From Patescibacteria group bacterium (GTDB taxonomy: Bacteria > Patescibacteriota > JABMPQ01 > JBFLZX01): DNA of 64,000 nt. How positions within the stretch are numbered: the first letter of the stretch is position 1; each line of letters starts with the position of its first letter. The stretch lies in the NCBI GenBank assembly GCA_040756075.1, contig JBFLZX010000001.1:28787-92786 (forward strand), written 5' to 3'. A program made the translations under genes and the position numbers. Under the pieces are notes generated by a model. That model searched no databases and had not been told where the DNA came from. It saw nothing but the letters and a program-made list of their open reading frames with translations. Of this stretch, positions 3,429 through 29,515 are shown one piece after another.

Positions 3429-3489
3429 TTATTTATTAATCCTAAACACTCAAGATGTCTCAAAATTTTTTATTCATGAATTTTAAAGA

Positions 3490-9837: not shown

Positions 9838-9888
9838 TATTCTATAAAATATTAATAATTTTAATCAGCATAGTTATTAGGAGGCACA

Positions 9889-12069
9889 ATGAAAAAAGTT
9901 TTACTAACTGGTGGAGCTGGTTATTTAGGTTCTATTCTATCAAGAAAACTGATTGAGAAAGGCTATCAAGTAAAATGTTTTGATAAGATGTATTTCGGTG
10001 AAAGTTCTATTAAGCAATTAATACCCCATAAGGATTTTGAATTGATTAATGGCGATATCCAAAAATTAGATGCATATTCTAATCTTTTAGATGGTGTTAA
10101 CGCAGTTATACATTTAGCCGGCCTTGCTAATGATCCGACGGCAGAACTCGATCCCGAGCTCACTCAATTGATAAATTATAGATCATCTTATTTATTGGCT
10201 AAGATGGCTAAAGAAAGAGGGGTTGAGCGTTTTATTTATGCTTCAAGTTGTAGCGTCTACGGGAAGGGGCTGTTGGATGTTGTTAGCGAAGAGACGCCAT
10301 TAAATCCTGTATCGGTTTATGCTGAATCAAAAATGCGTGCCGAAAATGAAATTATAAAGATGGTGGATGAAAAATTTTGCCCTATATTTCTAAGACAGGC
10401 TACCCTTTATGGCGTTTCTTGGCGTATGCGTTTTGATTTAGCAATTAATTTAATGGTTTTACACGCAATTCTTAGTAAAAAAATCTTTATTTGGGGCGGT
10501 GGGACTCAGTGGAGGCCTTTTTTGCACGTTGAAGATGCCGCAGAAGCGTTTATAACTTGTTTAGAGCAACCTAGAGATAATGTTGCTGGAAAAATTTATA
10601 ATGTTGGATCTACGGAGAATAATTATAAAATAATAGATTTAGCAAAAATCGTTCAAGACAACATTAAGGGTGTTCAATTAGACATAATTCCTGACAATCC
10701 GGACAAACGCAGCTATAGAGTTTGTTGTGACAAGATTAGCAAGGAATTGAATTGGCATCCCAGGAGAACAATTGAGGATGGTATAAAGGAGCTAATCGGA
10801 TTTATTGAAAAAAATAAACAAAAAACTAATTTCGAAGATTATTATTATTATAATATTAAGACACTTCAGCGTTTCTTAAAAACACCTGTAATAGAGAATG
10901 GCGATCCGATTAGAGCAGACGAGTTACCGTTTAATAGGCCCAGCATAGGTAAAGAAGAGGAAGAAGAAGTTTTAGATACTCTTCGTTCGGGATGGTTAAC
11001 GACTGGTCCAAAAGTTAATACATTAGAAGAAATGTTTAAAAGATATATTGGAGTTAAGCATGCCGTTTGCGTTAGTTCTTGTACTGCGGCCCTACACCTT
11101 AGCTTAGCCGTTTTAGATATTAAGGATGGAGACGAAGTTATTACTTCGCCAATAACATGGCCGGCTACTGCTAATGTAATAGTTCATGTAGGGGCAACTC
11201 CAGTTTTTGCTGATGTGAATCGCCGCACTCTTAATATTGACCCCCAAGAGATCGAATCAAAAATTACAAAAAAAACGAAGGCGATTATACCGGTACATGT
11301 AGCAGGACAGCCATGTGAAATGGATAAAATCAATCAAATTGCTAAAAAATATAATCTTCATGTAATTGAAGATGCGGCACATGCCATAGGCGCTTTTTAT
11401 AATTCGCAACAAATAGGCACAATTAGTGATTTTACTTGTTTTAGTTTTTATCCGATTAAAAATATAACTACTATTGAAGGAGGGCTCGTAGTTACTAATA
11501 ATAATGAATGGGCGAAAAAATTAAGAATTTATAGTTTGCATGGAGTAACTAATGATGCATGGAATAGATATGCTACTAAATCCAAAGGAATTCATGAGGT
11601 CGTATATCCAGGATTTAAATATAATATGAGCGATATACAAGCTTCTCTTGGAATACACCAGCTGAAGAAACTCAAGACATTTATTAAACAAAGAAAAGAA
11701 ATAATAGAGCAATATAATAATAGTTTTAGTCAGATTGAAGAGATTATTTTTCCCCAACCTATTCATAATATACAACATGCAAATCATCTTTATATTATAA
11801 TATTAGATATTGATAAATTGAAGATTGACAGAGATAGGTTTATTGAAGCCTTAAAGAGCGAAAATATAGGCGTGGGCGTTCATTTTCGTTCATTGCATAT
11901 GCAGCCATACTATAGGAATAGATTTAGTTTTAAAGATGATTATTTTCCTTCAGCAAAGTATCTAAGCGATAGAATCCTTTCATTGCCTTTATACCCTGCC
12001 ATGAATCAACGCGATGTAGATACAGTTATAAAAGCCGTTATAAAACTAGTTAATTACTATAGAAAATGA
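9889..12069 (+). CDS. Bifunctional fusion of an NAD-dependent sugar-nucleotide epimerase/dehydratase (extended SDR) and a DegT/DnrJ/EryC1-family PLP aminotransferase
   Basis: N-terminus: LLTGGAGYLGS Rossmann motif and YAESK catalytic dyad. C-terminal roughly 390 aa: DegT-family pattern (SGWLTTGPKV ... CTAALHLSL ... SFYPIKNITTIEGG). A strong AGGAGG RBS lies upstream. Confidence 0.75.
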   Translation: MKKVLLTGGAGYLGSILSRKLIEKGYQVKCFDKMYFGESSIKQLIPHKDFELINGDIQKLDAYSNLLDGVNAVIHLAGLANDPTAELDPELTQLINYRSSYLLAKMAKERGVERFIYASSCSVYGKGLLDVVSEETPLNPVSVYAESKMRAENEIIKMVDEKFCPIFLRQATLYGVSWRMRFDLAINLMVLHAILSKKIFIWGGGTQWRPFLHVEDAAEAFITCLEQPRDNVAGKIYNVGSTENNYKIIDLAKIVQDNIKGVQLDIIPDNPDKRSYRVCCDKISKELNWHPRRTIEDGIKELIGFIEKNKQKTNFEDYYYYNIKTLQRFLKTPVIENGDPIRADELPFNRPSIGKEEEEEVLDTLRSGWLTTGPKVNTLEEMFKRYIGVKHAVCVSSCTAALHLSLAVLDIKDGDEVITSPITWPATANVIVHVGATPVFADVNRRTLNIDPQEIESKITKKTKAIIPVHVAGQPCEMDKINQIAKKYNLHVIEDAAHAIGAFYNSQQIGTISDFTCFSFYPIKNITTIEGGLVVTNNNEWAKKLRIYSLHGVTNDAWNRYATKSKGIHEVVYPGFKYNMSDIQASLGIHQLKKLKTFIKQRKEIIEQYNNSFSQIEEIIFPQPIHNIQHANHLYIIILDIDKLKIDRDRFIEALKSENIGVGVHFRSLHMQPYYRNRFSFKDDYFPSAKYLSDRILSLPLYPAMNQRDVDTVIKAVIKLVNYYRK

Positions 12070-13769
12070 AAAAAGACCCAAGTAAAATACTAATCTTAAT
12101 AATCATCATAGGAGCTATAGTAAGAATTTTAGGCGTAAATTTTGGGCTCCCTTTTATATATCACAATGATGAAAAGATAATTGTGAATTATGCGCTTGCT
12201 TACGGCGCAGGAGACCTGAACCCACATTTCTTTAAGATTCCGCCTTTATTGTCTTATTTTCTATTTTTTCTTTACGGGATTTTTTATATAGCGGGGAAAA
12301 TTTTAGGCATTTTTAATTCTATTAGTGAATTCGGATACCTTTTTTTAAATAATCCAACCAGTTTTTTTATTATTGGTAGATTTTTTGCTGGAGTTATTCC
12401 AGGCATTCTGTCAATTCCCCTGATATTTTATTTAGCAGAAAGAGCATTTTCAAGACGCGTTGCAATATTTGCGTCACTTTTCTTATCGCTTAATTTTTTA
12501 CACGTCAGAGATTCTCACTATATTTATTGCGATATACTCTTAGTTTTTTTTATCCTCCTATTTTTTATATGGCTTTTTAAAATTTTTGAGAAAAATCGAA
12601 CAAGCGACTATTTTGTCACTGCATTAATTATCGGTATAGCTACATCAATAAAATATAACGGAATACTATTATTTATTCCTTTTCTACTTATAATTTTACG
12701 CAATAAAGCCTTTTTTAAAGATAGCAATATAGTTTTGTTTAAAAGATTATTTGGAATAGGGTTATTTTATCCCATCGCTTTATTCTTTAGCAATCCGTAT
12801 ATGTTTCTAGATTATAAATTTTTCTTTAATGATATTTCAAGAATGCCTTTTTATAATCCCGGATTTTTTTATCACTTAAAAGTATCTATTGTTGGAGGAT
12901 GCGGCCTATTAATATTTCTTTTTTCTATAGGCGGCTTTACAATAGCCATTTTTAAGAAACATTTTTTTGCTATTACACTTGGTTTCTTTGGCTTAATTTA
13001 TTATTTTATTGTTGCTAGGCTTAGCCAATCGGCAGAGAGATATATTCTTCCACTTATTCCCGCTATATTATTATTTGCGGCATATTTTCTTGATTACATT
13101 ATTCAGAAAGTAAAAGCAGTTAAAGCGCAATTAATTCTCTCTGTTTTATTTTGTATAATATTACTTACACCTTCTTTGTTTAAAATATATAAATCTGATA
13201 AGCTTTTTACTATGGATGATACGCGTACACAAGCTTATGAATGGATTAAGAAAAACATTCCATTTAATACTAAGATCGCTGTCGATTCAACCGGGTCAAT
13301 ATACCCAGTATTAAGACAATCAAAGGAATTTATTGATATCAATGTAAAAAATTTCAAAAAAGAAAAATTTCGGAAACCAGAAGGTTCTTTAGATTATAAA
13401 ATAGAACTTATAAAAAATAATCCTTATTATGATAATACTTATAGGATTTATTATTTAAAAAAAAGCATAGGCCAAAAAGGATTCTTTTTATCATTCCCTG
13501 AAGTAGAGTTAAATATAGATCAAATCAAGACTAAAGGGATTGAATATATAGTTGTTTCGACTTTACTTATTAGCAATACCGGAAAAAAATTTTTACCAGT
13601 ACTAGAAAAAAATACTAATTTAATTAAAGAATTCTCTCCATATAATAAATCTATTTCTAAATTAATTCCTGATGAGCTTACTGTTTTACCTGCTGCAGCT
13701 TTTACATACCGAGAGTTAAAGGATAGAGACAGGTTTGGTCCAGTAATTAGAATCTATAAGTTTAAGTAG
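12066..13769 (+). CDS. Polytopic membrane glycosyltransferase, GT-C fold (GT39/PMT_2, ArnT-like)
   Basis: Multi-TM protein. A DE-type motif in the first extracytoplasmic loop (HNDEKII) is typical of the ArnT/PMT family. There is a C-terminal soluble domain. Confidence 0.6.
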   Translation: MKKDPSKILILIIIIGAIVRILGVNFGLPFIYHNDEKIIVNYALAYGAGDLNPHFFKIPPLLSYFLFFLYGIFYIAGKILGIFNSISEFGYLFLNNPTSFFIIGRFFAGVIPGILSIPLIFYLAERAFSRRVAIFASLFLSLNFLHVRDSHYIYCDILLVFFILLFFIWLFKIFEKNRTSDYFVTALIIGIATSIKYNGILLFIPFLLIILRNKAFFKDSNIVLFKRLFGIGLFYPIALFFSNPYMFLDYKFFFNDISRMPFYNPGFFYHLKVSIVGGCGLLIFLFSIGGFTIAIFKKHFFAITLGFFGLIYYFIVARLSQSAERYILPLIPAILLFAAYFLDYIIQKVKAVKAQLILSVLFCIILLTPSLFKIYKSDKLFTMDDTRTQAYEWIKKNIPFNTKIAVDSTGSIYPVLRQSKEFIDINVKNFKKEKFRKPEGSLDYKIELIKNNPYYDNTYRIYYLKKSIGQKGFFLSFPEVELNIDQIKTKGIEYIVVSTLLISNTGKKFLPVLEKNTNLIKEFSPYNKSISKLIPDELTVLPAAAFTYRELKDRDRFGPVIRIYKFK

Positions 13770-13782
13770 AAGATATTTGTAA

Positions 13783-14553
13783 ATGTATATTTCCGTAGTT
13801 ATTCCAATATATAATGAAGAGGGCAGCATAAATACTCTTTATAATAGGCTGAGTAGGGTCATGGAAGGCATTCATCTTGAATACGAGATAATTTTTATTG
13901 ACGATGGCTCAAATGATGACTCTTTGAAATTAATAAGATCTATTATAAATAATGATAATAAAGTAAAGGCGATCTCTTTTGATAAAAATTATGGGCAACA
14001 TCCAGCGGTAATAGCTGGTTTTGAAAAAGCGCAAGGTAAATTTATAGTTACGCTTGATGCAGATTTACAGAATCCCCCGGAAGAAATTCCCAAGCTCATT
14101 GATGCGATAAATGACGGATATGATATGGTAAGCGGAATTAGGGTATTGAGAAAGGATAATAATTTTAGACAGTTATCTTCAGCTTGTTCAAATATATTTT
14201 TAAATTTACTGACAAGAAGCCATATCAATGATTACGGAACTATGCTGCGTGTTTTTAAAAAAGAATTTGCAAAAAAGATGAGCATTCATTATAGAAGAAA
14301 TAGGCTTTATATACCAGTATTAATTAATACCCTTACTAATAACATTCTAGAAATTGAGTTAAGCCATGAAAATCGTTTTGCCGGTGAATCAAAATATGCA
14401 TTTTTTAAATTGATAAAGACATTTATTTCTATAGTTATACGGTATCATCGAGGTTTTACAGCATTCCTTAAATTTTTTCATATAATAAAAGAGGACGATG
14501 TGCTTTATAGAGTTAAAGAGCAAATAGAAATACAAAAAAGTAGACATATATAA
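13783..14553 (+). CDS. GT2 glycosyltransferase, ArnC/GtrB-like polyprenyl-phosphate sugar synthase
   Basis: SVVIPIYNEEGSI, IIFIDDGSNDDS and DADLQNPPEEIPKL motifs match ArnC/GtrB. Confidence 0.75.
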   Translation: MYISVVIPIYNEEGSINTLYNRLSRVMEGIHLEYEIIFIDDGSNDDSLKLIRSIINNDNKVKAISFDKNYGQHPAVIAGFEKAQGKFIVTLDADLQNPPEEIPKLIDAINDGYDMVSGIRVLRKDNNFRQLSSACSNIFLNLLTRSHINDYGTMLRVFKKEFAKKMSIHYRRNRLYIPVLINTLTNNILEIELSHENRFAGESKYAFFKLIKTFISIVIRYHRGFTAFLKFFHIIKEDDVLYRVKEQIEIQKSRHI

Positions 14554-14555
14554 AT

Positions 14556-15323
14556 ATGCATAAAAAAACACAATCTACAAAAATAGTTTTGAAAAAAAAT
14601 AAATGGGATAGTTTATTTTTTGGCATAGATATCGCAGACATGTTTTTTCATGGATTTAATTTGCCATCGGAATCAGAAATAAAATTATTATTAGATAGAG
14701 CGTTAAAAAAAGCCTATAATTTTGGTTTTAAATATTTAGTTTTCACGCTTCCCGAAAAATTTATTTTTTTAAGCAGTATCCTTAAGAAACAAGGTTTTAA
14801 GCTTATAGATTTATGTTTTGATTTAAAGTTAGTTATTAATAAAAAGATACCTTTCAAAATATCGTCCGATATCAATATTATTAAAACCTGTATTAGCGAT
14901 ATTCCTTTCATTGAGAGGATAGCGAGTTATTCTTTTAGATTGAGCAGGTTTTATAATCTTAAATTTTCGAATAAAAAATTATCCGACCTTTACCATATTA
15001 TTTGGATTAGAAATTTACTTAAGAGTAGACGGGCTATTTTATTTACGGCTAAATTAGAAGATAGAGTGTGTGGTTTTCTTGCGCTTACATTAAATCGTCA
15101 AGATTGTTCCGGAAGGATAAGCCTTATTGCTACCAAAAAAGATATGCAGGGTATGGGGGTCGGAAATGCATTAGTTTATTATGCTATTAATTGGGCTAGA
15201 AAAAAAAGATTTAAAACGATATATGTAAAAACACAGAAGAATAATCTTAAAGCGCTAAAATTATATAAAAAACATAATTTTAAGATTTTTAATGTAGAAC
15301 GCAAGTATTCTCTTTATTTATGA
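14556..15323 (+). CDS. GNAT-family N-acetyltransferase (WecD-like amino-sugar acetyltransferase architecture)
   Basis: The C-terminus carries a GNAT motif A (MQGMGVGNALVYYAINWARKK). The two-domain layout resembles TDP-fucosamine acetyltransferase. Confidence 0.6.
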   Translation: MHKKTQSTKIVLKKNKWDSLFFGIDIADMFFHGFNLPSESEIKLLLDRALKKAYNFGFKYLVFTLPEKFIFLSSILKKQGFKLIDLCFDLKLVINKKIPFKISSDINIIKTCISDIPFIERIASYSFRLSRFYNLKFSNKKLSDLYHIIWIRNLLKSRRAILFTAKLEDRVCGFLALTLNRQDCSGRISLIATKKDMQGMGVGNALVYYAINWARKKRFKTIYVKTQKNNLKALKLYKKHNFKIFNVERKYSLYL

Positions 15324-16993
15324 TAATGAAAAAATTGATTTTAATATCTTTTTTTATTTTATTTACTATTTTATGTATAGGGACCATTCTTCAAACTTCT
15401 CCTATATGCGATGAAGTCGCGCATCATTTAGCCAGCGGATATTCCTATTTAAAGACAAAAGATTTCAGGATGAATCCAGCCACACCTGCATTTTCAAGGG
15501 AATTAATTGCTGCGTCGCTTTTAGTCCTTAATTTAAGGTTGCCAACGGATCATCCTTCTTGGATTAATAATGATAGCCCTATATTTGGAAGGCTTTTTTT
15601 ATATGAATACAATGATAATCCTGAAAGAATAGTTTTGTTGGCCCGTTTGTCTGTTATGCTTCAATCTATTATTCTTGCATTTTTGGTTTACGTTTGGGCC
15701 AGAAAGGTACACGGTGTAAACGCTGCCGTATTTTCCGTTTTTCTATACTTGTTTTCTCCTGCAATCATAGGAAATTCTACTATAGCTATGGCAGATATCT
15801 CTGTAAGCCTTTTTATATTCTTAACGATTTTTCAGTTTTGGCTTTTTTTACAAAAGAAAACTATAGCTGGCTTAATTTTTACAGGAATATTTTTTGGATT
15901 AGCACAGTCTTCTAAGCATACTGCAATAATACTATTTCCGCTTTTTATTATTTTAGGAATAGTCTATGCTATGAATTCAAGTAATAACAAGGGAGATATG
16001 TTATGGGATATGTGGAAAAAAATAGTTTTAATATGGGGGATTGGTTTTTTTACGTTATGGGCAACTTATTTTTTTGAATTCAAGCCATTGCTTTTAAATG
16101 TTAGTGATATAAACGAAAAAGTAGTATATATTCAGAGATTCTTATCATCGATACCTTTTTTAGACCATAAATATATTATAGATAAAGTAATTTATTTTGC
16201 TAAAAATGTTCCTATTCCGCTGAGCTCTTTTTTTATTTCATTATTTGGAGTATTACATCAATCAAGTATTGGGCAAGGCGTATTCTTTATGGGAGAGCAT
16301 ACTATCAGCGGATCAAGGATTTATTATATCGTCGATTATTTAATAAAGACTCCTATACCACTTTTAATTTTTATTATTCTTTCGATCTTTTTAACACTAT
16401 TTAAGAGGCTATTTAAAACAAAAATCTTAACAAATTGGTTTATTATTTTGCCGATATTTCTTATTTTTGTCGCGTCATCATATTCAAAAATCCAAGGAGG
16501 AATAAGATATCTTTTGCCGATATATCCTTTTCTATTTGTATGGCTAGGAAATATCATAACCGTTAAATTCAACCCATTTAGAAATTTATTTTATAAAATC
16601 ATTATTTTAATAATATGTTTATGGTATTTTTGGATTGCATTAAAGACATTTCCGGATTATCTATGTTATTTTAATGAAGCTGTAGGTGGATTAAATGGCT
16701 TCGGTCATAAAATAACACATGATTGTGATTGGGGGCAAGATCTTAAAGCGCTTGGTAAATTTTATAAAAAAAATGATCTTAATGAAATTACGCTTTCCTA
16801 TTTTGGTACGGCAGACCCATCTTTTTACGGAATTAATTATAAAGAGTTATCTAAGGAAGAGCAAGACGTACCGGGAAAGAAAGTTTATGCGATAAGCATA
16901 CGTTTTCTTGATTCTGCGAAATGGACAAGAAATATTCCGCCATCTGCAAAAGCAGGCCATTCTATATTCATTTATGACTTTAGAGTTAATTGA
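15320..16993 (+). CDS. Polytopic membrane glycosyltransferase, GT-C fold (GT39/PMT_2, ArnT-like)
   Basis: DE motif near the N-terminus (ICDEVAHHLASGYSY). Multiple TM helices and a C-terminal soluble domain. Confidence 0.65.
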   Translation: MIMKKLILISFFILFTILCIGTILQTSPICDEVAHHLASGYSYLKTKDFRMNPATPAFSRELIAASLLVLNLRLPTDHPSWINNDSPIFGRLFLYEYNDNPERIVLLARLSVMLQSIILAFLVYVWARKVHGVNAAVFSVFLYLFSPAIIGNSTIAMADISVSLFIFLTIFQFWLFLQKKTIAGLIFTGIFFGLAQSSKHTAIILFPLFIILGIVYAMNSSNNKGDMLWDMWKKIVLIWGIGFFTLWATYFFEFKPLLLNVSDINEKVVYIQRFLSSIPFLDHKYIIDKVIYFAKNVPIPLSSFFISLFGVLHQSSIGQGVFFMGEHTISGSRIYYIVDYLIKTPIPLLIFIILSIFLTLFKRLFKTKILTNWFIILPIFLIFVASSYSKIQGGIRYLLPIYPFLFVWLGNIITVKFNPFRNLFYKIIILIICLWYFWIALKTFPDYLCYFNEAVGGLNGFGHKITHDCDWGQDLKALGKFYKKNDLNEITLSYFGTADPSFYGINYKELSKEEQDVPGKKVYAISIRFLDSAKWTRNIPPSAKAGHSIFIYDFRVN

Positions 16994-17083
16994 GGTTATT
17001 TCATTTAGTTAGCTGAAGTATAATAATTATTAGTTTAAGTTGTTATGATGCTAATAATAGTTAATGATAGCTAAATATAGTTA

Positions 17084-17111
17084 TTGACAATTGATAAGCA
17101 TATGGTATACT
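17084..17111 (+). promoter_or_regulatory. Sigma70-like promoter (TTGACA-16 bp-TATACT) driving the long downstream operon
   Basis: TTGACA at 17084..17089, a 16-nt spacer, and TATACT at 17106..17111. It lies in the only sizeable intergenic gap (16994..17164), about 55 nt upstream of the ATG at 17165. Confidence 0.5.
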
Positions 17112-17164
17112 TATAACATATATTCTCCAAGTATTTTCTTAGTTAATATATAATTATTTTATAT

Positions 17165-19318
17165 ATGAATAATATAAAAAATATAATATTTCTTTCTATT
17201 GATGCACTGCGTTTTGATATGTTAAGATATGCAGGTGGCTACCAATTAAATACTACGCCTTCCATCGACTTTCTATGCAAAAATGGCATATATTGTGCTA
17301 ATGCATTTACTCCGGGAAATCCTACTCAGTTCGGATTTCCTTCTATATTTACCTCAACTATGCCTTTAGATTTTGGTTCATATAATGAAGGGATAAAGAA
17401 TAGGCCTATTTCTTTCCCCGAGATTCTTAAGAAAAAAGGTATTAAGACATGTGGCATGACTAATAATGTGAATATAAATAATTTCTTTTATTATGACCGC
17501 GGGTTTGATGAATTCTATGAATTTTTTGATATTGAACTCTTTTGGAATAGTATGAAGAAGAATTATTTTTATTACTACCGAGAATTGTATAAAAAAAATA
17601 TAATTAATAAACAAGCTTATTATGAGATATTAAGATTCTGGTTAAAAAAATGTTTTTTATATATGATGGATTTTTGTAATAAGAGAGATAATGCAATAGA
17701 AATCCAGTGTGATTATATTGCAGAATGGCACGATTATGAAATCCTCAAAAAAGCAATCTCAAGCAAAATTAAAAATTTAATAAATAATTTCGGGAATTAC
17801 CATAATGATAATTTCGATGATCTCTTAAATAAAAATTTATATGATTTTCTCGGTATTGTATCAACTAAGCCCGCAATAGGTAAGTTTATTAATCATATTG
17901 ATAAGAATATTGCAAAATTATTAAAGAATATTTATATCCAATTTGATGAAAGGTATTCGAGAAAGATTAAAGGAGATAAAATTGCAAAGAATATTATTAA
18001 TTGGATAGATAAAAATTCAATTAATCCATTTTTTATTTGGGCGCATTTTATGGATTTGCATGATGAAAATTATATATCAAAATCTTTTGGTTTACCCCAC
18101 AAGCTCGCTTCTTTTATAGCAAAAAGAATTTTTTTACGGGATACTTATAGAGGAAACCTGCGTTATGATTTTTCTCTAAACTTTGTAGATAGGGCGGTAG
18201 GTTGTATTATTAAGTATTTAAGAAATAAGGATCTTTTGGATAGTTCTTTAATAGTCATCTGTGGAGATCATGGGCATAGGACGGGTAAGCCTTATAGGAA
18301 AGGTTCTTCCGCCGCCGCTTTCTATGAAGAGGATATAAAAGTACCCTTAATATTTTATAACCCTAAATTCAGACCAAAGAGAATTGAAGATCTTTGTTGT
18401 TTAAGAGATATAGCTCCTAGTATTTTTTCATTTCTAGGTATTGAACAAGTGGCTGAATTTGAAGGAAAATCTGTCATTGATAGATCTGTTAAAGAGAGAG
18501 ATTATGTTATATTGGAAAATAACTTTAGAGGGCCTTGCGATTTCGACAATAAGCCCATATATCTTGCCGTCAGAACAGATAAATATAAGTATGTGCATCG
18601 CGAATCGATTAGTTTTAACGATCCATGGTCAAAGCATAAACAAGAGTTATATAATCTTAATGATGATCCAAAAGAATATAATAATTTATACGATCATCCC
18701 GAATACGTTAATGTTTTAAATAAGTTAGAAAAAATAGCAGTACAGAGAATTCAGGACATAAGATCATCGCATGGTAAGAATAATTTAGGGCATACCGATG
18801 GCAAAGGTTTTGTTTTATGGTTAACAGGATTATCTGGATCAGGGAAAACTACATACGCAAATAGGCTTTATACGCTTTTTGGCATTAAAAATTTTAAGAT
18901 ATTGGATGGAGATGAATTTAGGCAAATGTTTAGTGCAGATTTAGGTTATACATATGAAGATAGAATTTTGAATATCAAGCGAATTGCTTATTATGCGCAT
19001 ATTATATCGAGCTTAGGAATAAATGTCATAGTTGCTAATATAGCACCTTTTTATGAGGCCCGGGATTTTATAAGGCAGAATATTCATAATTATATTCAGG
19101 TTTATCTTAAAGCCGATATAGAGGTATTAAAGATTAGGGACCCTAAAGGATTATATGCTAGATCGAAAGCAAGAAAAATCGGAAATGTTATCGGGATACA
19201 TGAGCCATATCAAGAACCAAGAACTCCTGATGTCGTTATTGATACAGGACAGGAGAGCGTCGAGGATGGCGTTCAGAAAATAATTACTTATCTACGCAAT
19301 AAAAAGATAATTCAATAG
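17165..19318 (+). CDS. Fusion of an alkaline-phosphatase-superfamily 'sulfatase-like' domain with an adenylyl-sulfate (APS) kinase
   Basis: N-terminal roughly 520 aa: sulfatase/AP fold (LSIDALRFDML, TPGNPTQ, CGDHGH) but without a C/S-x-P-x-R formylglycine motif. C-terminal roughly 180 aa: CysC-like (LWLTGLSGSGKTT Walker A plus an APS-kinase-like body). Confidence 0.65.
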   Translation: MNNIKNIIFLSIDALRFDMLRYAGGYQLNTTPSIDFLCKNGIYCANAFTPGNPTQFGFPSIFTSTMPLDFGSYNEGIKNRPISFPEILKKKGIKTCGMTNNVNINNFFYYDRGFDEFYEFFDIELFWNSMKKNYFYYYRELYKKNIINKQAYYEILRFWLKKCFLYMMDFCNKRDNAIEIQCDYIAEWHDYEILKKAISSKIKNLINNFGNYHNDNFDDLLNKNLYDFLGIVSTKPAIGKFINHIDKNIAKLLKNIYIQFDERYSRKIKGDKIAKNIINWIDKNSINPFFIWAHFMDLHDENYISKSFGLPHKLASFIAKRIFLRDTYRGNLRYDFSLNFVDRAVGCIIKYLRNKDLLDSSLIVICGDHGHRTGKPYRKGSSAAAFYEEDIKVPLIFYNPKFRPKRIEDLCCLRDIAPSIFSFLGIEQVAEFEGKSVIDRSVKERDYVILENNFRGPCDFDNKPIYLAVRTDKYKYVHRESISFNDPWSKHKQELYNLNDDPKEYNNLYDHPEYVNVLNKLEKIAVQRIQDIRSSHGKNNLGHTDGKGFVLWLTGLSGSGKTTYANRLYTLFGIKNFKILDGDEFRQMFSADLGYTYEDRILNIKRIAYYAHIISSLGINVIVANIAPFYEARDFIRQNIHNYIQVYLKADIEVLKIRDPKGLYARSKARKIGNVIGIHEPYQEPRTPDVVIDTGQESVEDGVQKIITYLRNKKIIQ

Positions 19319-19320
19319 TT

Positions 19321-20421
19321 ATGATGAATAAGAAAAATAGAATTCAAATTAATTTTGATCATTTATTATACTTAAGGGGTATTAATGAGGGTTCGTTAAA
19401 TCCTTTAAAAGGGTTTTGTAATAGGTTGGATTACGAATCTATTCTTAAGACGATGCGTTTTAAAAATGGTTATCCTTGGCCTATCCCAATAACTTTAGAA
19501 ATAGACGAGGAACAAGCAAAATCTATCAAGAAATTTAATGAAGCAGAATTAATTCAGGAAGATGGGATTAATTGCGCTATTTTAATGATAACAGATATAT
19601 TTAAGATTGATTTACAAAGATATATCAAAGAAATATTTAAAACAGATTCATTGAATCATCCAGGAGTAAAGAAAGAGATAAAAAAACCCCTATGGAGAAT
19701 AGCAGGAGACATTAGATTTAAACGCTCATTTAAACCCATAAGCAGTAAATATTATCAGAAGCCCGATGAGGTCATAAAAGAAATAAAGAAGAGGGGATGG
19801 AATACTGTTGCAGGATTTCAAACAAGGAATCCAATTCATCGAGCACATGAGCATCTTCAGCGTATCGCAATGGAGGTATGTGATGGTTTGCTAATTCAAC
19901 CGCTTATAGGGGCTAGAAAAAATGATGATTTTTCTTTTCCGGCTATCTTGGAATCATATAATATCATGATAAACCATTTTTATCCTAGAGATAAAGTGAT
20001 TTTTACCTCCTTAGAGCTGCCTATGCATTACGCAGGTCCACGGGAAGCCATTTTACATGCTTTAATCAGAAAAAATTATGGCTGTACGCATTTTATAGTA
20101 GGAAGGGATCATGCTGGGGTTGGTAATTTTTATGGTAGATACGAAGCGCAAGAAATTGCAAATAGCTTTAAAGACTTAGGTATAGAAATACTTAGATTAA
20201 AAAGCCCTTTTTTCTGTAAAAAATGTGCCAAGGTAGTATCTGAAAATACATGCACACATTATTATTCAGATAAAGATTCTGTTTGCGAAATAAACGGTTC
20301 AAATATACGAAATATGATAAATAATAATAAAATCCCACCTAAATTTATAATGAGGAAAGAAATAAGTAAAATGCTTTTTGAGTATAAGCAAAAAAAAATG
20401 TTATTAAATGAATGGAGATGA
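19321..20421 (+). CDS. sat: Sulfate adenylyltransferase (ATP sulfurylase)
   Basis: Canonical QTRNPIHRAHE motif and GRDHAGVG motif. Confidence 0.8.
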   Translation: MMNKKNRIQINFDHLLYLRGINEGSLNPLKGFCNRLDYESILKTMRFKNGYPWPIPITLEIDEEQAKSIKKFNEAELIQEDGINCAILMITDIFKIDLQRYIKEIFKTDSLNHPGVKKEIKKPLWRIAGDIRFKRSFKPISSKYYQKPDEVIKEIKKRGWNTVAGFQTRNPIHRAHEHLQRIAMEVCDGLLIQPLIGARKNDDFSFPAILESYNIMINHFYPRDKVIFTSLELPMHYAGPREAILHALIRKNYGCTHFIVGRDHAGVGNFYGRYEAQEIANSFKDLGIEILRLKSPFFCKKCAKVVSENTCTHYYSDKDSVCEINGSNIRNMINNNKIPPKFIMRKEISKMLFEYKQKKMLLNEWR

Positions 20422-20422
20422 T

Positions 20423-21385
20423 ATGTTTAAGATTATTGTAACCTTAGGCCCCTCAATATTGAAAGGGGATACATTAAAAATGCTTCCAAGAGAGCATCCT
20501 TATATATTTAGACTTAATGGTTCGCATATATCATATAATTATGCCAGAGATTTGGTTAAAAAAATACGTAAAGCAGTAAAAGAAGCGGTTATTTTACTTG
20601 ATTTGCCGGGTAATAAGGTAAGAACAACCAACTTGGAGAGGCCTATTAATCTTATGGTTGGTAAAAAATTTTGCTTAACCGACGATATGATAAATCATAA
20701 GATATTTTTTGATAGGGTTAAAGTTGGAGATGTTATTAGGGCCCATGATAGTTTATTAAAATTTGAGGTTATTAATAAGAAGAAGAAGTCCGTAAGTTTT
20801 ATATCCCATTCAAACGGGATTCTTAATAAAAATAAAGGTCTTCATCTTTGCGGATTAACCGATGGTATAGATTTTTTAACAGAACAAGATAAGGTTCTTT
20901 TAGAGATAGCAAAGAATCTTAGGATAGATTGTGTTGGAGTTTCGTATGTTAGGGATAAGCAAGATATTCTTCTTATTAGGGATTATATGCGTAAGAAAGA
21001 TTTTATTCCTGATATTTTTGTTAAGATCGAGACAAAAAGAGCTATAGAAAATCTTAATTCTATTTTTAGCGAAGCGAATAATTTTATTCTTGATAGAGGG
21101 GATCTTTCAAGTGAAGTAGGTATTGAGAATATTTCATTGTTTCAACGTAAGATAATCGTTGAGGCGAAGAAAAAGAATCGTAATCTTTTTCTGGCAACAC
21201 AGTTTTTAAAAAGCATGATTCATAATCCATTGCCATTTATAGCAGAAGTAAATGATTTGCATAATGTGCTTGCAGATGGAATATCTGGATTGCAGCTTTC
21301 TGATGAGACTGCGATAGGAAAATATCCCCTAGAAGCGATTAATACAATAATAGCCATAAGAAAGAATATAGAAAAGTTACTATAA
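20423..21385 (+). CDS. Pyruvate-kinase-family protein comprising the catalytic barrel only, with no C-terminal regulatory domain
   Basis: PK signatures IIVTLGPS, FRLNGSH, ILLDLPGNKVRT, KIETK, DRGDLS and ATQFLKSM. I prefer the start at 20423 (GGAGA RBS, directly after the sat stop) over 20408. Confidence 0.6.
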   Translation: MFKIIVTLGPSILKGDTLKMLPREHPYIFRLNGSHISYNYARDLVKKIRKAVKEAVILLDLPGNKVRTTNLERPINLMVGKKFCLTDDMINHKIFFDRVKVGDVIRAHDSLLKFEVINKKKKSVSFISHSNGILNKNKGLHLCGLTDGIDFLTEQDKVLLEIAKNLRIDCVGVSYVRDKQDILLIRDYMRKKDFIPDIFVKIETKRAIENLNSIFSEANNFILDRGDLSSEVGIENISLFQRKIIVEAKKKNRNLFLATQFLKSMIHNPLPFIAEVNDLHNVLADGISGLQLSDETAIGKYPLEAINTIIAIRKNIEKLL

Positions 21386-21401
21386 AAAATAAGGAGTAAA
21401 T

Positions 21402-21632
21402 ATGGAAATCAAAGAAGGCGGAGTTTATACTTTACAAGAAGTCCAAAAGTTATTAAAGGTAAGCCCAAGTACATCGTTAAGGCTTGTTAAAAATGGTTTT
21501 ATTCATGCGGCCAAGGTAGGAAAGCAATATCGTATTCTCGGAAAAGAACTTTTACGTCTTTTATCTCCACAGCTTGAAGATAAAGTTGGTAAACTTTACA
21601 ATAAAGGCAGGGCTTGGTTGTACGAGGATTAA
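21402..21632 (+). CDS. Small excisionase/MerR-superfamily helix-turn-helix DNA-binding protein
   Basis: YTLQEVQKLLKVSPSTSLRLVKNGFIHAAKVGKQYRI fits the Xis-type HTH_17 pattern. An AAGGAG RBS lies upstream. Confidence 0.55.
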   Translation: MEIKEGGVYTLQEVQKLLKVSPSTSLRLVKNGFIHAAKVGKQYRILGKELLRLLSPQLEDKVGKLYNKGRAWLYED

Positions 21633-21648
21633 AAAAAAGGAGATATTG

Positions 21649-23055
21649 ATGAAGAGCAGAATAAAATCTTTAATTATAAGTAAAAATTCTTGCATCAAAG
21701 ATGCTATAAAGGGCATAATGAAAAATGGTTATGGAGTTGTTTTTATAGTAGACGAAAACGGTCGATTTATTAGTGTTATAAACGATGGCGATATCAGAAG
21801 GGGTATTCTTAAAGGGAAGCAGTTGGCGGATAATGTTATGACGATATCTTCAGATACGCCTTTTTATGTGTTAGATAATATGTCGAAAGAAGAGATAGCG
21901 GGGTTCATCAATAAGAAAAATAATTTAAAAAATAAAATTCAATATGGGGGTACCCTTAAGGTACCAGTTTTAGATAAGAATAAGTTAATTACCAATGTTT
22001 TGTTTATTTCCATAAATGACAGCGGAGTTTGCATTATTGATCATGACTGTAGAAGCCCTAATAAAATGCGAGAAATTAAAAAAAATAAAAATATATTAGT
22101 TACCGGCGGAGCAGGCTATCTTGGTTCAATTCTATGCAAGAAACTACTAGATAATGATTATAAGGTCAAGGTATTAGATAATCTGATGTATGGTGATCAT
22201 GGGATAAGGCAATTTCTTAATAATCCTAATTTTAAGCTCATCAAGGGAGATATTAGAAATATTCAAATCGTTGTAGAATCTATAAAAGACGTTGATGCAG
22301 TTATTCATCTTGCTGCAATAGTAGGGGATCCTGCTACTACCAAATTTCCCCAAGAGTCTATCGATGTAAATTATTTAGCAACTAAAGCAATTGTTGAAGT
22401 TTGTAAATATTACCAGGTCAATAGATTTATATTTGCTTCTACTTGTAGTGTTTATGGTTATCAATCCGAAGAGGATAGCGGATTAACAATTAATTCTAAG
22501 CTGAACCCGCTTTCTTTATATGCAAAGATGAAGCTTGAGTCAGAGAAAGCCATTCTTTCATTAGCTGATGATTATTTTTCACCCTTAGTTTTAAGAATGG
22601 CAACTCTATACGGTTTATCTCCTAGGATGAGATTTGATTTAGCGGTTAATTTCCTTTCTGCCGAAGCCGTAATTAAAAAGGAAATAGTAATTTTTGGCGG
22701 CAGTCAATGGAGGCCATTCCTGCATGTAGAGGATGCCGCAAATGCTTATGTTAAATGCCTCGAATTACCTTTTAGGAAAGTACGGAAAAAAATATTAAAT
22801 TTAGGCCAAAATAATCAAAATTATCAGATGCTTCGCGTAGGAAGAATGATAAAGAAGCTAATCCCGGGAACGAAATTAGGGATATCTAAAAAAGAAGTTG
22901 ATTCGAGAAATTATAAAGTATTATTTGATGATACCGTAAAGAACATAGATTTTCATGCCGATTATAAAGTATCAGACGGAATTGCAGAAATTAGAGATCG
23001 CATCTTAGAGGGAGATTTTATTGATTATAGAGATAAAAAATATAGGAATGTTTGA
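21649..23055 (+). CDS. CBS-domain pair fused to an NAD-dependent sugar-nucleotide epimerase/dehydratase (paralogue of the N-domain of 9889..12069)
   Basis: N-terminus: CBS-like (GVVFIVDENGRFISVINDGDIRRGI). C-terminus: ILVTGGAGYLGS and YAKMK. It shares the ATLYG.S.RMRFDLA.N and QWRPFLHVEDAA blocks with the 9889 ORF. The start is taken at the ATG 21649, which follows an AAGGAG RBS. Confidence 0.65.
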   Translation: MKSRIKSLIISKNSCIKDAIKGIMKNGYGVVFIVDENGRFISVINDGDIRRGILKGKQLADNVMTISSDTPFYVLDNMSKEEIAGFINKKNNLKNKIQYGGTLKVPVLDKNKLITNVLFISINDSGVCIIDHDCRSPNKMREIKKNKNILVTGGAGYLGSILCKKLLDNDYKVKVLDNLMYGDHGIRQFLNNPNFKLIKGDIRNIQIVVESIKDVDAVIHLAAIVGDPATTKFPQESIDVNYLATKAIVEVCKYYQVNRFIFASTCSVYGYQSEEDSGLTINSKLNPLSLYAKMKLESEKAILSLADDYFSPLVLRMATLYGLSPRMRFDLAVNFLSAEAVIKKEIVIFGGSQWRPFLHVEDAANAYVKCLELPFRKVRKKILNLGQNNQNYQMLRVGRMIKKLIPGTKLGISKKEVDSRNYKVLFDDTVKNIDFHADYKVSDGIAEIRDRILEGDFIDYRDKKYRNV

Positions 23056-23081
23056 ATTATAAGACATAGAAAGGAGTGATT

Positions 23082-23531
23082 ATGCCTAAGATAACTAAGC
23101 CACAATTATTGAATATAGAATTTCATTGTGATGATAGGGGCTATCTAGTTCCTTTAACAAATAATTTGGATAGAACATTGCAAAAAAAGATAAAAAGAAC
23201 TTATGTAGTAGGAAACTTTAGTAAAGGAGTAATCAGGGGATTACATTTCCATAAAAAAGAAATTAAAATATTTTATATTGCCCGAGGTGCCGCAAAATTC
23301 GTAGCTATCAATCCTAAATTACCTAAAAAGGATTTTTATGCACATGTTCTTTCAGACAAAAAATCTGCTTTATTTATAATTCCTCCCGGATATGCTAACG
23401 GCTGGGTTTCTTTATCTGATAACACAATATTAATTTCTTTATCTACATCTACATTTCAGGAAAGTGTAAAAGATGACATAAGATTTTCTCCTTACGAATG
23501 GGGAGATATTTGGAATATAAGAGCCAGGTAA
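23082..23531 (+). CDS. Cupin-fold sugar-nucleotide 3,4-ketoisomerase or 3,5-epimerase (FdtA/WxcM-like or RmlC-like)
   Basis: A roughly 150 aa cupin. The N-terminal segment HCDDRGYLVPL resembles the RmlC/FdtA block, and IRGLHFH is a cupin His motif. It lies between an SDR and a DegT aminotransferase. Confidence 0.5.
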   Translation: MPKITKPQLLNIEFHCDDRGYLVPLTNNLDRTLQKKIKRTYVVGNFSKGVIRGLHFHKKEIKIFYIARGAAKFVAINPKLPKKDFYAHVLSDKKSALFIIPPGYANGWVSLSDNTILISLSTSTFQESVKDDIRFSPYEWGDIWNIRAR

Positions 23532-23534
23532 TAT

Positions 23535-24719
23535 ATGATAAATAAGAGAATAATTCCTTATGGAAAACAGTGGTTATTTAAAGAAGACATTAATTCAGTT
23601 GCTAATGTTTTAAGGTCCGATTGGATTACTCAGGGGCCTAAAATTAAAGCCTTTGAAGATGCAATTTGTAACTATTGTGGTTGTAAATATGCAGTAGTGG
23701 TTTCTTCCGGAACAGCCGCATTGCATATTGCCTGTTTGGCAGCAGGGCTTAAAAAAGGAGATCAGGCTATCACAACTCCGTTAACTTTTTTGGCTACAGC
23801 AAATTCTGTATTATACAGCGGGGCAGAAGTAATTTTTGCAGATATAGATTATGCTACCGGTAATATTGATACGAGACAGATTGAGAAAAAAATAACAAGA
23901 AAAACTAAAGTATTGTTGCCGGTAGATTTTGCAGGACTGCCTTGTGACTTATCAGAAATAAAAAAAATTGCAAAACGATATAAACTTTTGGTGATAGAAG
24001 ATTCTTGTCATGCTTTAGGCGCAACCTATAAAAATTCAAAGATAGGCGATTGTAATTATTCCGATATGACAATATTTAGTTTTCATCCTGTAAAACATAT
24101 TACAACAGGAGAAGGCGGGGCCATCACAACAAATTCTAAGAAGTTATATAATAGGCTTATTGCGCTAAGGAACCATGGGATGTGTAAGAAAGCGCAAACA
24201 TTAAAGAAAGAGGGTTCTTGGTATTACGAGATGAACTATCTTGGTTTTAATTATAGAATTACCGATTTACAATCTGTTTTAGGATTAAGTCAAATTAATA
24301 AATTACCTTTATTCATAAAGCGTAGAAATTTGATTGCCAATAGATATGACCAAGCATTCTTTTGTTTTAGAGATCTTCTAACTTTACCATCGATAAATTA
24401 TGGAGATAGAACACATGCTTGGCATTTGTATACGCTTAGATTAAACATGGCTAAAAAATATATTTCGCGTAGACAATTATTTGAATTGTTGCATAAAGAA
24501 GGAGTAAGAGTGCAAGTTCATTATATACCTATAACGCGGCAACCTTATTACCGAGAAAAAGGTTTTAAGAGCTCACTCTTTCCAAATGCTGAAAAATATT
24601 ATGAGAATGTTATTTCATTGCCAATCTATCCTAAAATGGACAATTCGGATATTGATTATGTTATAGGCGTTGTAAGCAAGATAATAGATAAATATTGTAG
24701 ACAAGGAGGCAGTAAGTGA
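23535..24719 (+). CDS. DegT/DnrJ/EryC1-family PLP-dependent sugar aminotransferase
   Basis: WITQGPKIKAFE, SSGTAALHIA and SFHPVKHITTGEGG are typical of this family. Confidence 0.75.
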   Translation: MINKRIIPYGKQWLFKEDINSVANVLRSDWITQGPKIKAFEDAICNYCGCKYAVVVSSGTAALHIACLAAGLKKGDQAITTPLTFLATANSVLYSGAEVIFADIDYATGNIDTRQIEKKITRKTKVLLPVDFAGLPCDLSEIKKIAKRYKLLVIEDSCHALGATYKNSKIGDCNYSDMTIFSFHPVKHITTGEGGAITTNSKKLYNRLIALRNHGMCKKAQTLKKEGSWYYEMNYLGFNYRITDLQSVLGLSQINKLPLFIKRRNLIANRYDQAFFCFRDLLTLPSINYGDRTHAWHLYTLRLNMAKKYISRRQLFELLHKEGVRVQVHYIPITRQPYYREKGFKSSLFPNAEKYYENVISLPIYPKMDNSDIDYVIGVVSKIIDKYCRQGGSK

Positions 24720-26185: not shown

Positions 26186-26201
26186 GAAGGGCGGGCATAA
26201 G

Positions 26202-29508: not shown

Positions 29509-29515
29509 TATAAAA

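Follow-up and report, generated by a model that had tools for sequence, protein, structure and literature searches.

We analysed a 64,000-nucleotide stretch of contig JBFLZX010000001.1 (the window, positions 1-64000) from a metagenome-assembled genome (MAG) labelled 'Patescibacteria group'. The subject here is positions 9889-24719, one section of a glycan-biosynthesis locus that is co-directional, exceeds 60 kb and has ~30% GC. This region encodes two short-chain dehydrogenase/reductases (SDRs), each accompanied by an aminotransferase of the DegT family. In module 1 (9889-16993), the SDR and the aminotransferase are a single fused protein, and four further genes follow. In module 2 (21649 to ~31051), the SDR is preceded by a pair of CBS domains (the CBS-SDR protein) and is followed by a cupin and a separate DegT protein. 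The central features are as follows.

9889-10833, forward strand: SDR domain of the fused protein (SDR1), Cj1427-like; residues 1 to ~315; Pfam Epimerase, 159 bits
10834-10881, forward strand: interdomain junction; residues ~316-331, ...YYYYNIKTLQRFLK...; short, ordered, conserved in sequence and length
10882-12069, forward strand: DegT domain of the fused protein (DegT1), ArnB-like; residues ~332-726; Pfam DegT, 441 bits
21649-22086, forward strand: CBS pair (Bateman module; residues 1 to ~125) and low-confidence linker (residues ~126-146) of the CBS-SDR
22087-23055, forward strand: SDR domain of the CBS-SDR (SDR2), Cj1427-like; motif FASTCSVYG; Pfam Epimerase, 162 bits
23076-23531, forward strand: cupin of 151 amino acids, predicted RmlC-like epimerase or QdtA/FdtA-like ketoisomerase; dTDP_sugar_isom, 50 bits; FdtA, 35 bits
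23535-24719, forward strand: PseC-type DegT protein (DegT2); NCBIfam PseC (TIGR03588), 501 bits, above its cutoff of 423.5

Architecture of the two SDR proteins

The open reading frame (ORF) at 9889-12069 encodes a single protein of 726 amino acids. Pfam places Epimerase (PF01370) at residues 4-240, with GDP_Man_Dehyd reaching residue 301, and DegT (PF01041, DegT/DnrJ/EryC1) at residues 352-717. These domain boundaries bear out the initial annotation of this DNA, which had read the ORF as an SDR fused to a DegT aminotransferase and had raised the concern that the fusion might be an artefact.

That concern is effectively refuted. The DNA across the junction is in one reading frame with no frameshift and no stop codon. 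A search of 5.8 billion proteins yielded at least 118 cluster representatives of the fusion from independent assemblies. They are 716-763 amino acids long, align with 99-100% of the query, are 50-68% identical to it and contain both Pfam domains. Their sources are Omnitrophota, Planctomycetota, Thermodesulfobacteriota and DPANN archaea (Woesearchaeota, Pacearchaeota), and a scan of GTDB species representatives added single-ORF fusions in Hydrogenedentota, Nitrospiraceae and FCPU426. The junction alignment is collinear across fusions from different phyla, with a conserved Y.N...P..G...F.PF pattern. The AlphaFold2 model of the whole fusion (mean predicted local distance difference test score (pLDDT) 92.9; predicted template-modelling score (pTM) 0.87) has no low-confidence or disordered linker, and the junction stretch itself has a pLDDT of 90-94. 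The model predicts that the fusion is a fixed two-domain body in which the SDR and the DegT domain are in direct contact.

If two genes had been joined by a frameshift, by mis-assembly or through loss of a stop codon, this would have to account for all of these independent, equally long fusions and for the conserved junction, and we give it a negligible chance. The observation in its favour is that SDR and DegT genes are adjacent yet separate in Bacillus niameyensis, Thalassobacillus devorans and Cohnella suwonensis. These three Bacillota had come up as fusions in a tblastn search and were rejected when inspection of the ORFs revealed two adjacent genes. However, the SDR in these organisms is a different, distant one (78-98 bits), and the genes lie in NeuB clusters.

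When a junction-spanning query was compared with a library clustered at 50% identity, ~8-10 clusters spanned the junction. Because the fusions collapse to about ten clusters at this level, they form, as judged by clustering, one coherent and fairly tight clade despite the many clusters at 90%. One member is named by NCBI 'bifunctional SDR family oxidoreductase/aminotransferase'. In the same 50% library, ArnB/PseC-like DegT domains (P0244-P0386) are also fused to PseB-like Polysacc_synt_2 domains, a formyltransferase C-terminal domain, GNAT, cytidylyltransferase, sulfotransferase, DUF2225 or a second DegT. One protein of 908 amino acids in that library has ~390 unannotated N-terminal residues before the SDR-DegT unit.

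We found that the second SDR does have a CBS pair at its N-terminus, as had been proposed. A single-sequence Pfam search gave a CBS match of only 23.3 bits (cutoff 24). A profile of the N-terminal 145 residues built from 20 relatives spans both CBS motifs of solved CBS-pair proteins (E ~3e-8, profile positions 3-120). It matches 2ef7 (ST2348), MJ0100 (3kpb) and the CBS pairs of arabinose-5-phosphate isomerases, and the C-terminal region of the NCBIfam KpsF/GutQ model matches the CBS pair of the CBS-SDR at 29.5 bits. The AlphaFold2 model (pLDDT 86.8) contains two beta-alpha-beta-beta-alpha units and falls below a pLDDT of 50 only at residues 138-145. At least 115 full-length representatives of the CBS-SDR were found, in bacteria and in archaea, and this architecture is no less common than the fusion.

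The longest ORF of the CBS-SDR (21574-23055, 493 amino acids) has Epimerase at residues 174-411, and homologues back a start at 21649. The NCBI call (P0121, 445 amino acids, start at 21718) is 23 codons shorter and truncates the first CBS motif, and P0121 has no precomputed CBS Pfam match, unlike most of its relatives. The first CBS motif of the window copy reads S-V-I-N-D-G-D, and 34 of 39 relatives have the canonical ribose-binding G-h-h-T-x-x-D. Because the window copy departs from this motif, its ligand binding may be altered. Control by adenylates or S-adenosylmethionine (SAM), suggested in the initial annotation, is possible. Nucleotide-dependent control of the first committed step by the CBS pair, for example feedback by a CMP-sugar end product, is plausible.

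Neither architecture is rare, although the initial annotation had called both unusual. With at least 115 full-length cluster representatives each, and with DegT domains fused to many partners, the fusion and the CBS-SDR are common but uncharacterised. Our literature search on the fusion and on CBS-SDRs in nonulosonic-acid pathways found no paper describing either family.

The two SDRs are paralogous. They are 41.6% identical over 308 amino acids (254 bits) and have in common the blocks ATLYG.S.RMRFDLA.N and QWRPFLHVEDAA, and the two DegT sequences share 40% identity across 383 amino acids. This much of the initial annotation holds, but its description of the modules as duplicated does not, if a local event is meant. 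We built a neighbour-joining tree from the SDR domains of 21 fusions and 27 CBS-SDRs, taking Cj1427 as the outgroup, and in it the two families are reciprocally monophyletic. Mean identity is 52% within the fused-SDR family, 64% within the CBS-SDR family, 45% between them and 34-36% to Cj1427. Orthologues of each SDR occur at 50-68% identity in other phyla, and both modules lie ~20 kb apart on one 183-kb Omnitrophota contig. A recent local duplication is ruled out by the reciprocal monophyly and by this co-occurrence. By the tree and the identities, the fused SDR and the CBS-SDR are old paralogous sister families that travel together.

The SDR active site

Both proteins are extended SDRs of family PF01370, with the GxxGxxG glycine motif (Rossmann TGGAGYLGS) and the Ser/Thr-Tyr-Lys triad (S120, Y144 and K148 in SDR1; T265, Y291 and K295 in SDR2). 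In SDR1 the active-site motif is ASSCSVYG, and the Tyr/Lys pair lies in YAESK. An alignment of 39 fusions shows no variation at C121, S122, Y144, R181 and W208-R209-P210 and very little at S120 and K148 (at least 90% conserved). C266 and S267 are likewise invariant in 39 CBS-SDR relatives, in which the triad T265, Y291 and K295 is also invariant or almost so. The pattern S/T-C-S-V-Y-G occurs in 114 of 120 fusions and in 118 of 120 CBS-SDRs.

The nearest characterised relative of both SDRs is Cj1427. It is the best PDB sequence match of SDR1 (6vo6, 165 bits versus 97 for the next) and of SDR2 (144 versus 113 bits), at 33-35% identity (35.4% for SDR1). It also ranks first in Foldseek (6vo6/6vo8; template-modelling (TM) score 0.90-0.92, root-mean-square deviation (rmsd) 2.2). 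The block R-x-A-T-x-x-G-x-S-x-R-M-R-x-D-L is common to both SDRs and Cj1427. Directly after the catalytic Ser/Thr, both SDR families have S/T-C-S and Cj1427 has T-N-S (its active-site residues were taken from the alignment); the dehydratase Glu is absent from all three. Cj1427 is a C4-dehydrogenase that converts a neutral sugar substrate, GDP-heptose, to a free 4-keto sugar without dehydration [PMC10680097]. It has a ping-pong mechanism in which tightly bound NADH is re-oxidised by 2-oxoglutarate, and a cupin C3/C5-epimerase acts next in its pathway [PMC10680097; PMC7949155]. WbpB also uses 2-oxoglutarate as the oxidant of NADH, and its 3-keto product is aminated by WbpE [PMC10622841].

We compared the two SDRs with curated models of keto-forming enzymes. 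Neither passed RmlB (TIGR01181; 110 bits for SDR1 and 94 for SDR2, cutoff 365), LegB (87 and 83 bits, cutoff 475), ArnA (NF005998; 44 and 68 bits, cutoff 777) or U4kpxs (NF008872; 57 and 63 bits, cutoff 294, over partial stretches only). SDR2 also failed PseB (TIGR03589; 49 bits, cutoff 408) and FnlA (47 bits, cutoff 730).

The initial annotation had called the SDRs dehydratases. In its classical form this reading makes both SDRs nucleoside diphosphate (NDP)-hexose 4,6-dehydratases, with the fusion yielding an NDP-4-amino-4,6-dideoxy sugar, and with the CBS-SDR and the cupin together doing the work of PseB (4,6-dehydration and C5 inversion) on the way to ordinary pseudaminic acid. 4,6-Dehydratases have T-D-E, T-S-E or D-K after the catalytic Thr, and ArnA and UXS have T-S-E. 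The Glu/Lys base of every characterised class of 4,6-dehydratase is an invariant Ser in both families here. In favour of the classical reading, the invariant Cys aligns with the Asp of RmlB and might act as an acid/base. The RmlB, LegB, PseB and FnlA scores of 47-110 bits are far below cutoffs of 365-730, and Cj1427 does not dehydrate. In contrast to SDR1 and SDR2, another SDR in the window (60287-61252) has TSSSEIYG and matches the dehydratase Pal best in the PDB (6bwl, 177 bits), which argues that the organism uses the canonical, Glu-bearing motif when it needs one. The dehydratase assignment of the initial annotation is not borne out, and we consider the classical reading unlikely; the neighbouring genes that speak for it are given below.

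A second alternative is that the SDRs are plain NDP-sugar 4-epimerases that supply the right epimer, and that the keto substrate of the DegT enzymes is made by an enzyme encoded elsewhere. The S-S-C-S-V-Y-G motif does resemble the S-S-S-x-x-Y-G of such enzymes, and the structural matches that follow Cj1427 are UDP-Gal, UDP-GlcNAc (UDP-N-acetylglucosamine) and UDP-GlcA 4-epimerases. Fusion or strict adjacency to an aminotransferase across phyla is nevertheless hard to explain unless the product of the SDR is the substrate of the aminotransferase. Moreover, Pfam searches of the ORFs in the module 1 operon revealed no other keto-forming enzyme. We regard this alternative as very improbable.

Because Cj1427 is the best match by both sequence and fold and the dehydratase signature is absent, both SDRs are most likely 4-keto-forming enzymes of the Cj1427 type rather than classical dehydratases. 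Our preferred reading of the locus is that it has two Cj1427-type SDRs, each coupled to its own DegT C4-aminotransferase and each opening a different pathway, one Arn-like and one Pse-like. We give this reading a probability of roughly 0.6.

Gene neighbourhoods of the two modules

The remaining genes of module 1 follow the fusion directly:

12066-13769, forward strand: GT-C membrane glycosyltransferase, PMT_2/ArnT type, copy 1; PMT_2, 51.5 bits; PMT, 37.6 bits
13783-14553, forward strand: ArnC-like GT2, predicted polyprenyl-phosphate amino-sugar transferase; Glycos_transf_2, 114 bits
14556-15323, forward strand: WecD-like GNAT, predicted to N-acetylate an NDP-4-amino sugar; WecD, 92 bits over the full length, cutoff 219
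15320-16993, forward strand: GT-C membrane glycosyltransferase, PMT_2/ArnT type, copy 2; PMT_2, 38 bits; PMT, 34 bits

The aminotransferase domain of the fusion is nearest to ArnB. Both DegT proteins belong to the DegT/DnrJ/EryC1 family (PF01041, 441 and 396 bits). The best NCBIfam model for the fused domain is ArnB (NF008658), with 428 bits (cutoff 631), ahead of PseC with 392 bits (cutoff 423.5); both are below cutoff. In the PDB it matches Salmonella ArnB (1mdo) at 335 bits and PseC (2fn6) at 191 bits, and by Foldseek it superimposes on solved ArnB with a TM score of 0.96 and an rmsd of 1.5-2.1 at 42-44% identity. The pyridoxal phosphate lysine K524 (in FSFYPIKNITT) and the cofactor-binding D495 are invariant in 39 fusions; the catalytic residues of both domains of the fusion are thus intact. 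The GT2 likewise has ArnC as its best NCBIfam model (NF007986, 206 bits, cutoff 529; PgfS, 130 bits).

This arrangement recurs around other fusions. In an Omnitrophota locus (L001), the order of GT-C, GT2, GNAT and second GT-C genes is identical to that in module 1. ArnC-like GT2 and PMT_2 genes lie close to the fusion in a Planctomycetota locus (L002). A Woesearchaeota locus (L003) has a PMT_2 gene near the fusion and a formyltransferase in place of the GNAT. An ArnC-like GT2 and a GNAT lie next to the fusion in FCPU426 (L009), and an ArnC-like GT2 also adjoins the fusion in locus L013. (GT-C neighbours were identified by Pfam on selected loci; the ArnT-like family is too divergent for phmmer.) An ArnC-type GT2 and an ArnT-type GT-C accompany amino-sugar genes in the window and again in L001, L002, L003 and L009. 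A stand-alone DegT protein 47% identical to the fused domain is part of an arnB-arnC-arnA-like arrangement (L043), and other close stand-alone DegT relatives adjoin ArnC-like GT2 genes. No formyltransferase, ArnD deformylase or ArnE/F flippase is encoded in 9889-16993, and a polysaccharide deacetylase homologue is found only far off, at 59260-60267.

On these grounds module 1 looks like a three-component, Arn-type system for polyprenyl-phosphate glycosylation, with a Cj1427-like oxidase in the role of the ArnA decarboxylase and a GNAT in that of the formyltransferase. PseB/PseC and FdtA/FdtB, offered as comparators in the initial annotation, do not fit module 1, which sits in an Arn-like operon.

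The Arn-like setting raises the alternative that module 1 follows ArnA in its chemistry as well. The fused SDR would then oxidatively decarboxylate UDP-glucuronate or UDP-GlcNAcA to a UDP-4-keto-pentose, which would be aminated to UDP-Ara4N (UDP-4-amino-4-deoxy-L-arabinose) or a 2-acetamido analogue. Module 1 would thereby be a genuine Ara4N-type system for modifying the envelope, with the ArnA dehydrogenase and ArnB joined in one protein. The case for this is the clear closeness of DegT1 to ArnB rather than PseC, the ArnC-like GT2 and ArnT-like GT-C genes of the same operon, the formyltransferase beside the Woesearchaeota fusion, and the stand-alone relative in L043. Decarboxylation of a 4-keto-uronate is also chemically facile. 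In addition, a Psychrobacter cryohalolentis SDR named 'oxidoreductase/decarboxylase' (8vr2, Pcryo_0617) and a DegT protein (8vr5, Pcryo_0618) have both been solved; a literature search on Pcryo_0617 found nothing relevant. The SDR itself speaks against it. The T-S-E of ArnA and UXS is replaced by S-C-S, the NF005998 and U4kpxs matches of SDR1 are weak (the latter over partial stretches only), and Cj1427 acts on a neutral sugar. Nor does a UDP-glucose 6-dehydrogenase gene occur up to 10 kb from the fusion in L002, L003, L009 or L013, or anywhere in the 64-kb window; L001 does carry one, in a WbpA/WbpB-like context. We regard decarboxylation by the fused SDR as distinctly unlikely.

Module 2 continues beyond DegT2 with the remaining Pse-like pathway genes (24716-31051, forward strand; assigned with Pfam and NCBIfam):

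24716-26185, forward strand: B12-radical SAM gene, directly upstream of the NeuB-type synthase gene
26202-27269, forward strand: NeuB/PseI-like synthase; PseI, 318.5 bits, cutoff 340
27269-28060, forward strand: cytidylyltransferase
28057-29508, forward strand: second B12-radical SAM gene
29516-31051, forward strand: PseG-PseH fusion of 511 amino acids; PseG-like at residues 4-270 (126 bits, cutoff 154) and PseH-like GNAT at residues 351-500 (93.8 bits, cutoff 93.1)

A cupin and then a separate DegT gene do follow the CBS-SDR, as the initial annotation had stated. The cupin has weak PDB matches to RmlC (39 bits) and QdtA (31 bits), and DegT2 matches ArnB at 247 bits and PseC (2fn6) at 230 bits. 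A PseB-type gene would be expected to have Polysacc_synt_2 as its top Pfam family, and none of the ORFs in the window does. In four other loci (L004, L005, L006 and L087), which belong to unrelated organisms including a Thermoplasmatota archaeon, the CBS-SDR lies beside a DegT gene or is separated from it by a cupin gene only, within clusters that contain NeuB and cytidylyltransferase genes. The cupin adjoins the CBS-SDR in L005 and L087 and is absent in L004 and L006. From the absence of PseB and the position of the CBS-SDR in these four loci, we infer that a widespread nonulosonic-acid pathway begins with the CBS-SDR and that here, with the cupin, it stands in the place of PseB. The separate Arn-like and Pse-like modules support the earlier proposal of parallel routes, to at least two different amino sugars.

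These neighbourhoods also offer support for the classical dehydratase reading. DegT2 exceeds the PseC cutoff (501 versus 423.5 bits), and PseH-, PseG- and PseI-like genes follow it. WecD, the model nearest to the GNAT of module 1, acylates a 4-amino-4,6-dideoxy sugar, dTDP-4-amino-4,6-dideoxy-D-galactose. To our knowledge, all known 5,7-diamino nonulosonic acids are 9-deoxy, and the Pen/Pal enzymes are a precedent for splitting the job of PseB over two enzymes.

B12-binding radical SAM genes are frequent in this locus. There are five in the 64-kb window (2031-3428, 24716-26185, 28057-29508, 39973-41478 and 49428-50879). On the unrelated 621-kb contig of L004, one protein of 876 amino acids (1839-4469) combines a B12-radical SAM domain with NeuB. 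This fusion and the gene adjacency at 24716 point to a conserved functional link between the two; the nonulosonic acid, or a precursor of it, may be C-methylated or deoxygenated.

Between the two sugar modules lies a sulfur-activation module of the 3'-phosphoadenosine 5'-phosphosulfate type (17165-21385), which suggests that sulfated glycans are made. Its features, on the forward strand like all gene-like ORFs of at least 110 amino acids in the window, are:

within 17165-21385: protein of 717 amino acids, a sulfatase/alkaline-phosphatase-family domain fused to adenosine 5'-phosphosulfate (APS) kinase
19321-20421: ATP sulfurylase
20408-21385: pyruvate-kinase homologue of 325 amino acids, barrel domain only

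The C/S-x-P-x-R formylglycine motif was not found in the sulfatase-like domain of the APS kinase fusion.

Farther downstream, an HpcH/HpaI-family aldolase gene (38421-39176) lies between two cytidylyltransferase genes (37646-39968), followed at a distance by genes for a 2-hydroxyacid dehydrogenase, a cyclase and a HAD hydrolase. The same trio is found directly upstream of the CBS-SDR in the Omnitrophota locus L087. The region 59260-63898 encodes the polysaccharide deacetylase homologue, the Pal-like SDR, a hexapeptide acyltransferase with a GH88-like tail and a UDP-GlcNAc 2-epimerase, and is a probable third entry point for a hexosamine or ulosonic acid. Membrane glycosyltransferases in the window include at least three of the PMT_2 type, one GT87-like and one YfhO-like. 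The GC skew is positive throughout, and the cumulative skew climbs monotonically. A promoter and terminator scan of 8500-25500 performed no better than on shuffled sequence, and operon boundaries were not informed by it.

The closest homologues (61-68% identity) of these proteins include several labelled Candidatus Omnitrophota, despite the 'Patescibacteria group' label of the source MAG; most of these homologues carry no taxon label. The syntenic relative for both modules is also an Omnitrophota MAG. A wrong taxonomic label on the source MAG could explain this, as could horizontal acquisition of the locus.

Proposed chemistry and likeness to known systems

We propose the following order of events. 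In module 1, the SDR domain of the fusion would oxidise C4 of a nucleotide sugar to a 4-keto sugar, and the ArnB-like DegT domain would aminate it with glutamate. The WecD-like GNAT would N-acetylate the new amine, and the ArnC-like GT2 would attach the sugar to polyprenyl phosphate. Once the lipid-linked sugar had been flipped across the membrane, it would be passed to an acceptor in the envelope by the two ArnT-like GT-C enzymes. In module 2, the CBS-SDR would form a 4-keto sugar, probably from UDP-GlcNAc, the cupin would epimerise or isomerise it, and the PseC-type DegT would aminate C4. The PseH/PseG protein, the PseI-like synthase and the cytidylyltransferase would then lead to a CMP-nonulosonic acid.

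The chemistry that we suggest by analogy is oxidation at C4 without dehydration or decarboxylation, with 2-oxoglutarate re-oxidising the bound NADH and with nucleotide control through the CBS pair. We hold this detailed version tentatively, at somewhat less than even odds. Cj1427 and WbpB use 2-oxoglutarate, which is the by-product of the aminotransferase; this could make the fused enzyme self-sufficient. Overall, a hydroxyl would be exchanged for an amine in a redox-neutral reaction (sugar-OH + glutamate -> sugar-NH2 + 2-hydroxyglutarate). NAD+-dependent oxidation of a secondary alcohol is unfavourable, and 4-keto sugars are labile. With the aminotransferase attached, the oxidation equilibrium would be pulled forward, and channelling of the 4-keto intermediate in the fusion, as suggested in the initial annotation, is plausible from the model.

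A bolder version, which we consider doubtful, concerns the products. The fusion would be a self-contained hydroxyl-to-amine exchange on a non-deoxy NDP-sugar, with 4-amino-4-deoxy sugars that keep O6 as products, and the CBS-SDR route would lead to undescribed 9-hydroxy-5,7-diamino nonulosonic acids. If the CBS-SDR does not dehydrate, its product keeps the hydroxyl that becomes O9; if it does, the CBS-SDR and the cupin are a split PseB. The linked B12-radical SAM enzymes might deoxygenate or methylate such nonulosonic acids at a later step, the CMP-sugar end product would be sensed by the CBS pair, and the compounds would occur across Omnitrophota, bacteria of the candidate phyla radiation (CPR) and DPANN and Thermoplasmatota archaea.

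Several observations weigh against our preferred reading of two Cj1427-type SDRs. Its key chemistry rests on motif logic and on an identity to Cj1427 of only 33-35%, and the invariant Cys is absent from Cj1427. This Cys could be a general acid/base that supports dehydration or C5/C3 epimerisation; cysteines have this role in GDP-fucose synthase and GDP-mannose 3,5-epimerase. The natural substrate of PseC is a 6-deoxy sugar, and the score of DegT2 above the PseC equivalog cutoff speaks for dehydration at some step of module 2. This is the strongest argument for a split PseB. In module 1, the ArnB-like DegT1 and the ArnC-like GT2 would suit an Ara4N-type pentose made by decarboxylation. The ArnB, ArnC, PseI and PseG models were all matched below their curated cutoffs, and the CBS1 of the window copy is without the canonical ribose-binding motif.

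In the usual annotation, a 4-keto intermediate comes from a 4,6-dehydratase or from the ArnA decarboxylase. The two widespread families described here appear to be a third entry, by C4 oxidation of the Cj1427 type. If this is true, a distinct reaction lies behind many genes annotated as 'epimerase/dehydratase' in the genomes of Omnitrophota, Planctomycetota, CPR and DPANN, and the surface glycans of these uncultured groups hold amino sugars, possibly nonulosonic acids, unlike the textbook 6-deoxy and 9-deoxy forms. The fusion would also be a compact, one-protein hydroxyl-to-amine catalyst, attractive for glyco-engineering. If the SDRs are ordinary dehydratases, what is left of the finding is a gene fusion that is common and, here, part of a large glycan locus.

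Of the known systems, the Cj1427 system is closest in its SDRs. Cj1427 (MlghA) is the GDP-D-glycero-D-manno-heptose C4-dehydrogenase of Campylobacter jejuni and acts with the cupin epimerase Cj1430 and the reductase Cj1428; the order of SDR then cupin in module 2 mirrors it. In contrast to the modules here, which would pass the 4-keto sugar to an aminotransferase, the Cj1427 system passes it to a reductase. Cj1427 has neither a DegT fusion nor a CBS pair, whereas one paralogue here has each. The substrate of Cj1427 is a GDP-heptose; the one here is probably UDP-linked, because a PseG-type UDP-sugar hydrolase is encoded downstream.

Module 1 resembles the Arn pathway (ArnA, ArnB, ArnC, ArnD, ArnE/F and ArnT), which makes Ara4N for lipid A. 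As in that pathway, ArnB-, ArnC- and ArnT-like genes lie in one operon, and N-acylation would precede lipid loading, with a formyltransferase at that position in the archaeal L003. Unlike the Arn pathway, module 1 has a keto-forming enzyme that is Cj1427-like, is without T-S-E and is fused to the aminotransferase. It also has a GNAT instead of a formyltransferase, and two GT-C paralogues.

Module 2 resembles the pseudaminic acid pathway (PseB, PseC, PseH, PseG, PseI and PseF, with the Pen/Pal variant in Bacillus). Its PseC and PseH matches are above the cutoffs, its PseG- and PseI-like matches are just below, and a cytidylyltransferase is present. It differs in that PseB is replaced by the CBS-SDR and the cupin, two B12-radical SAM genes are interleaved, and PseG and PseH are fused.

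Direct oxidation of a hydroxyl followed by transamination is likewise the strategy of WbpB/WbpE (and of GnnA/GnnB and NtdC/NtdA). The WbpB-type oxidases are GFO/IDH/MocA-family members that oxidise C3, whereas the enzymes here are extended SDRs expected to act at C4, with 2-oxoglutarate recycling a possible parallel. Finally, the CBS-SDR has in common with the arabinose-5-phosphate isomerases KpsF/GutQ and the CBS-nucleotidyltransferases of legionaminic acid clusters a Bateman module on what would be the first committed enzyme of a ulosonic-acid pathway. In contrast to KpsF/GutQ, the CBS pair here is N-terminal to an extended SDR, and the window copy has a degenerate ribose-binding motif.

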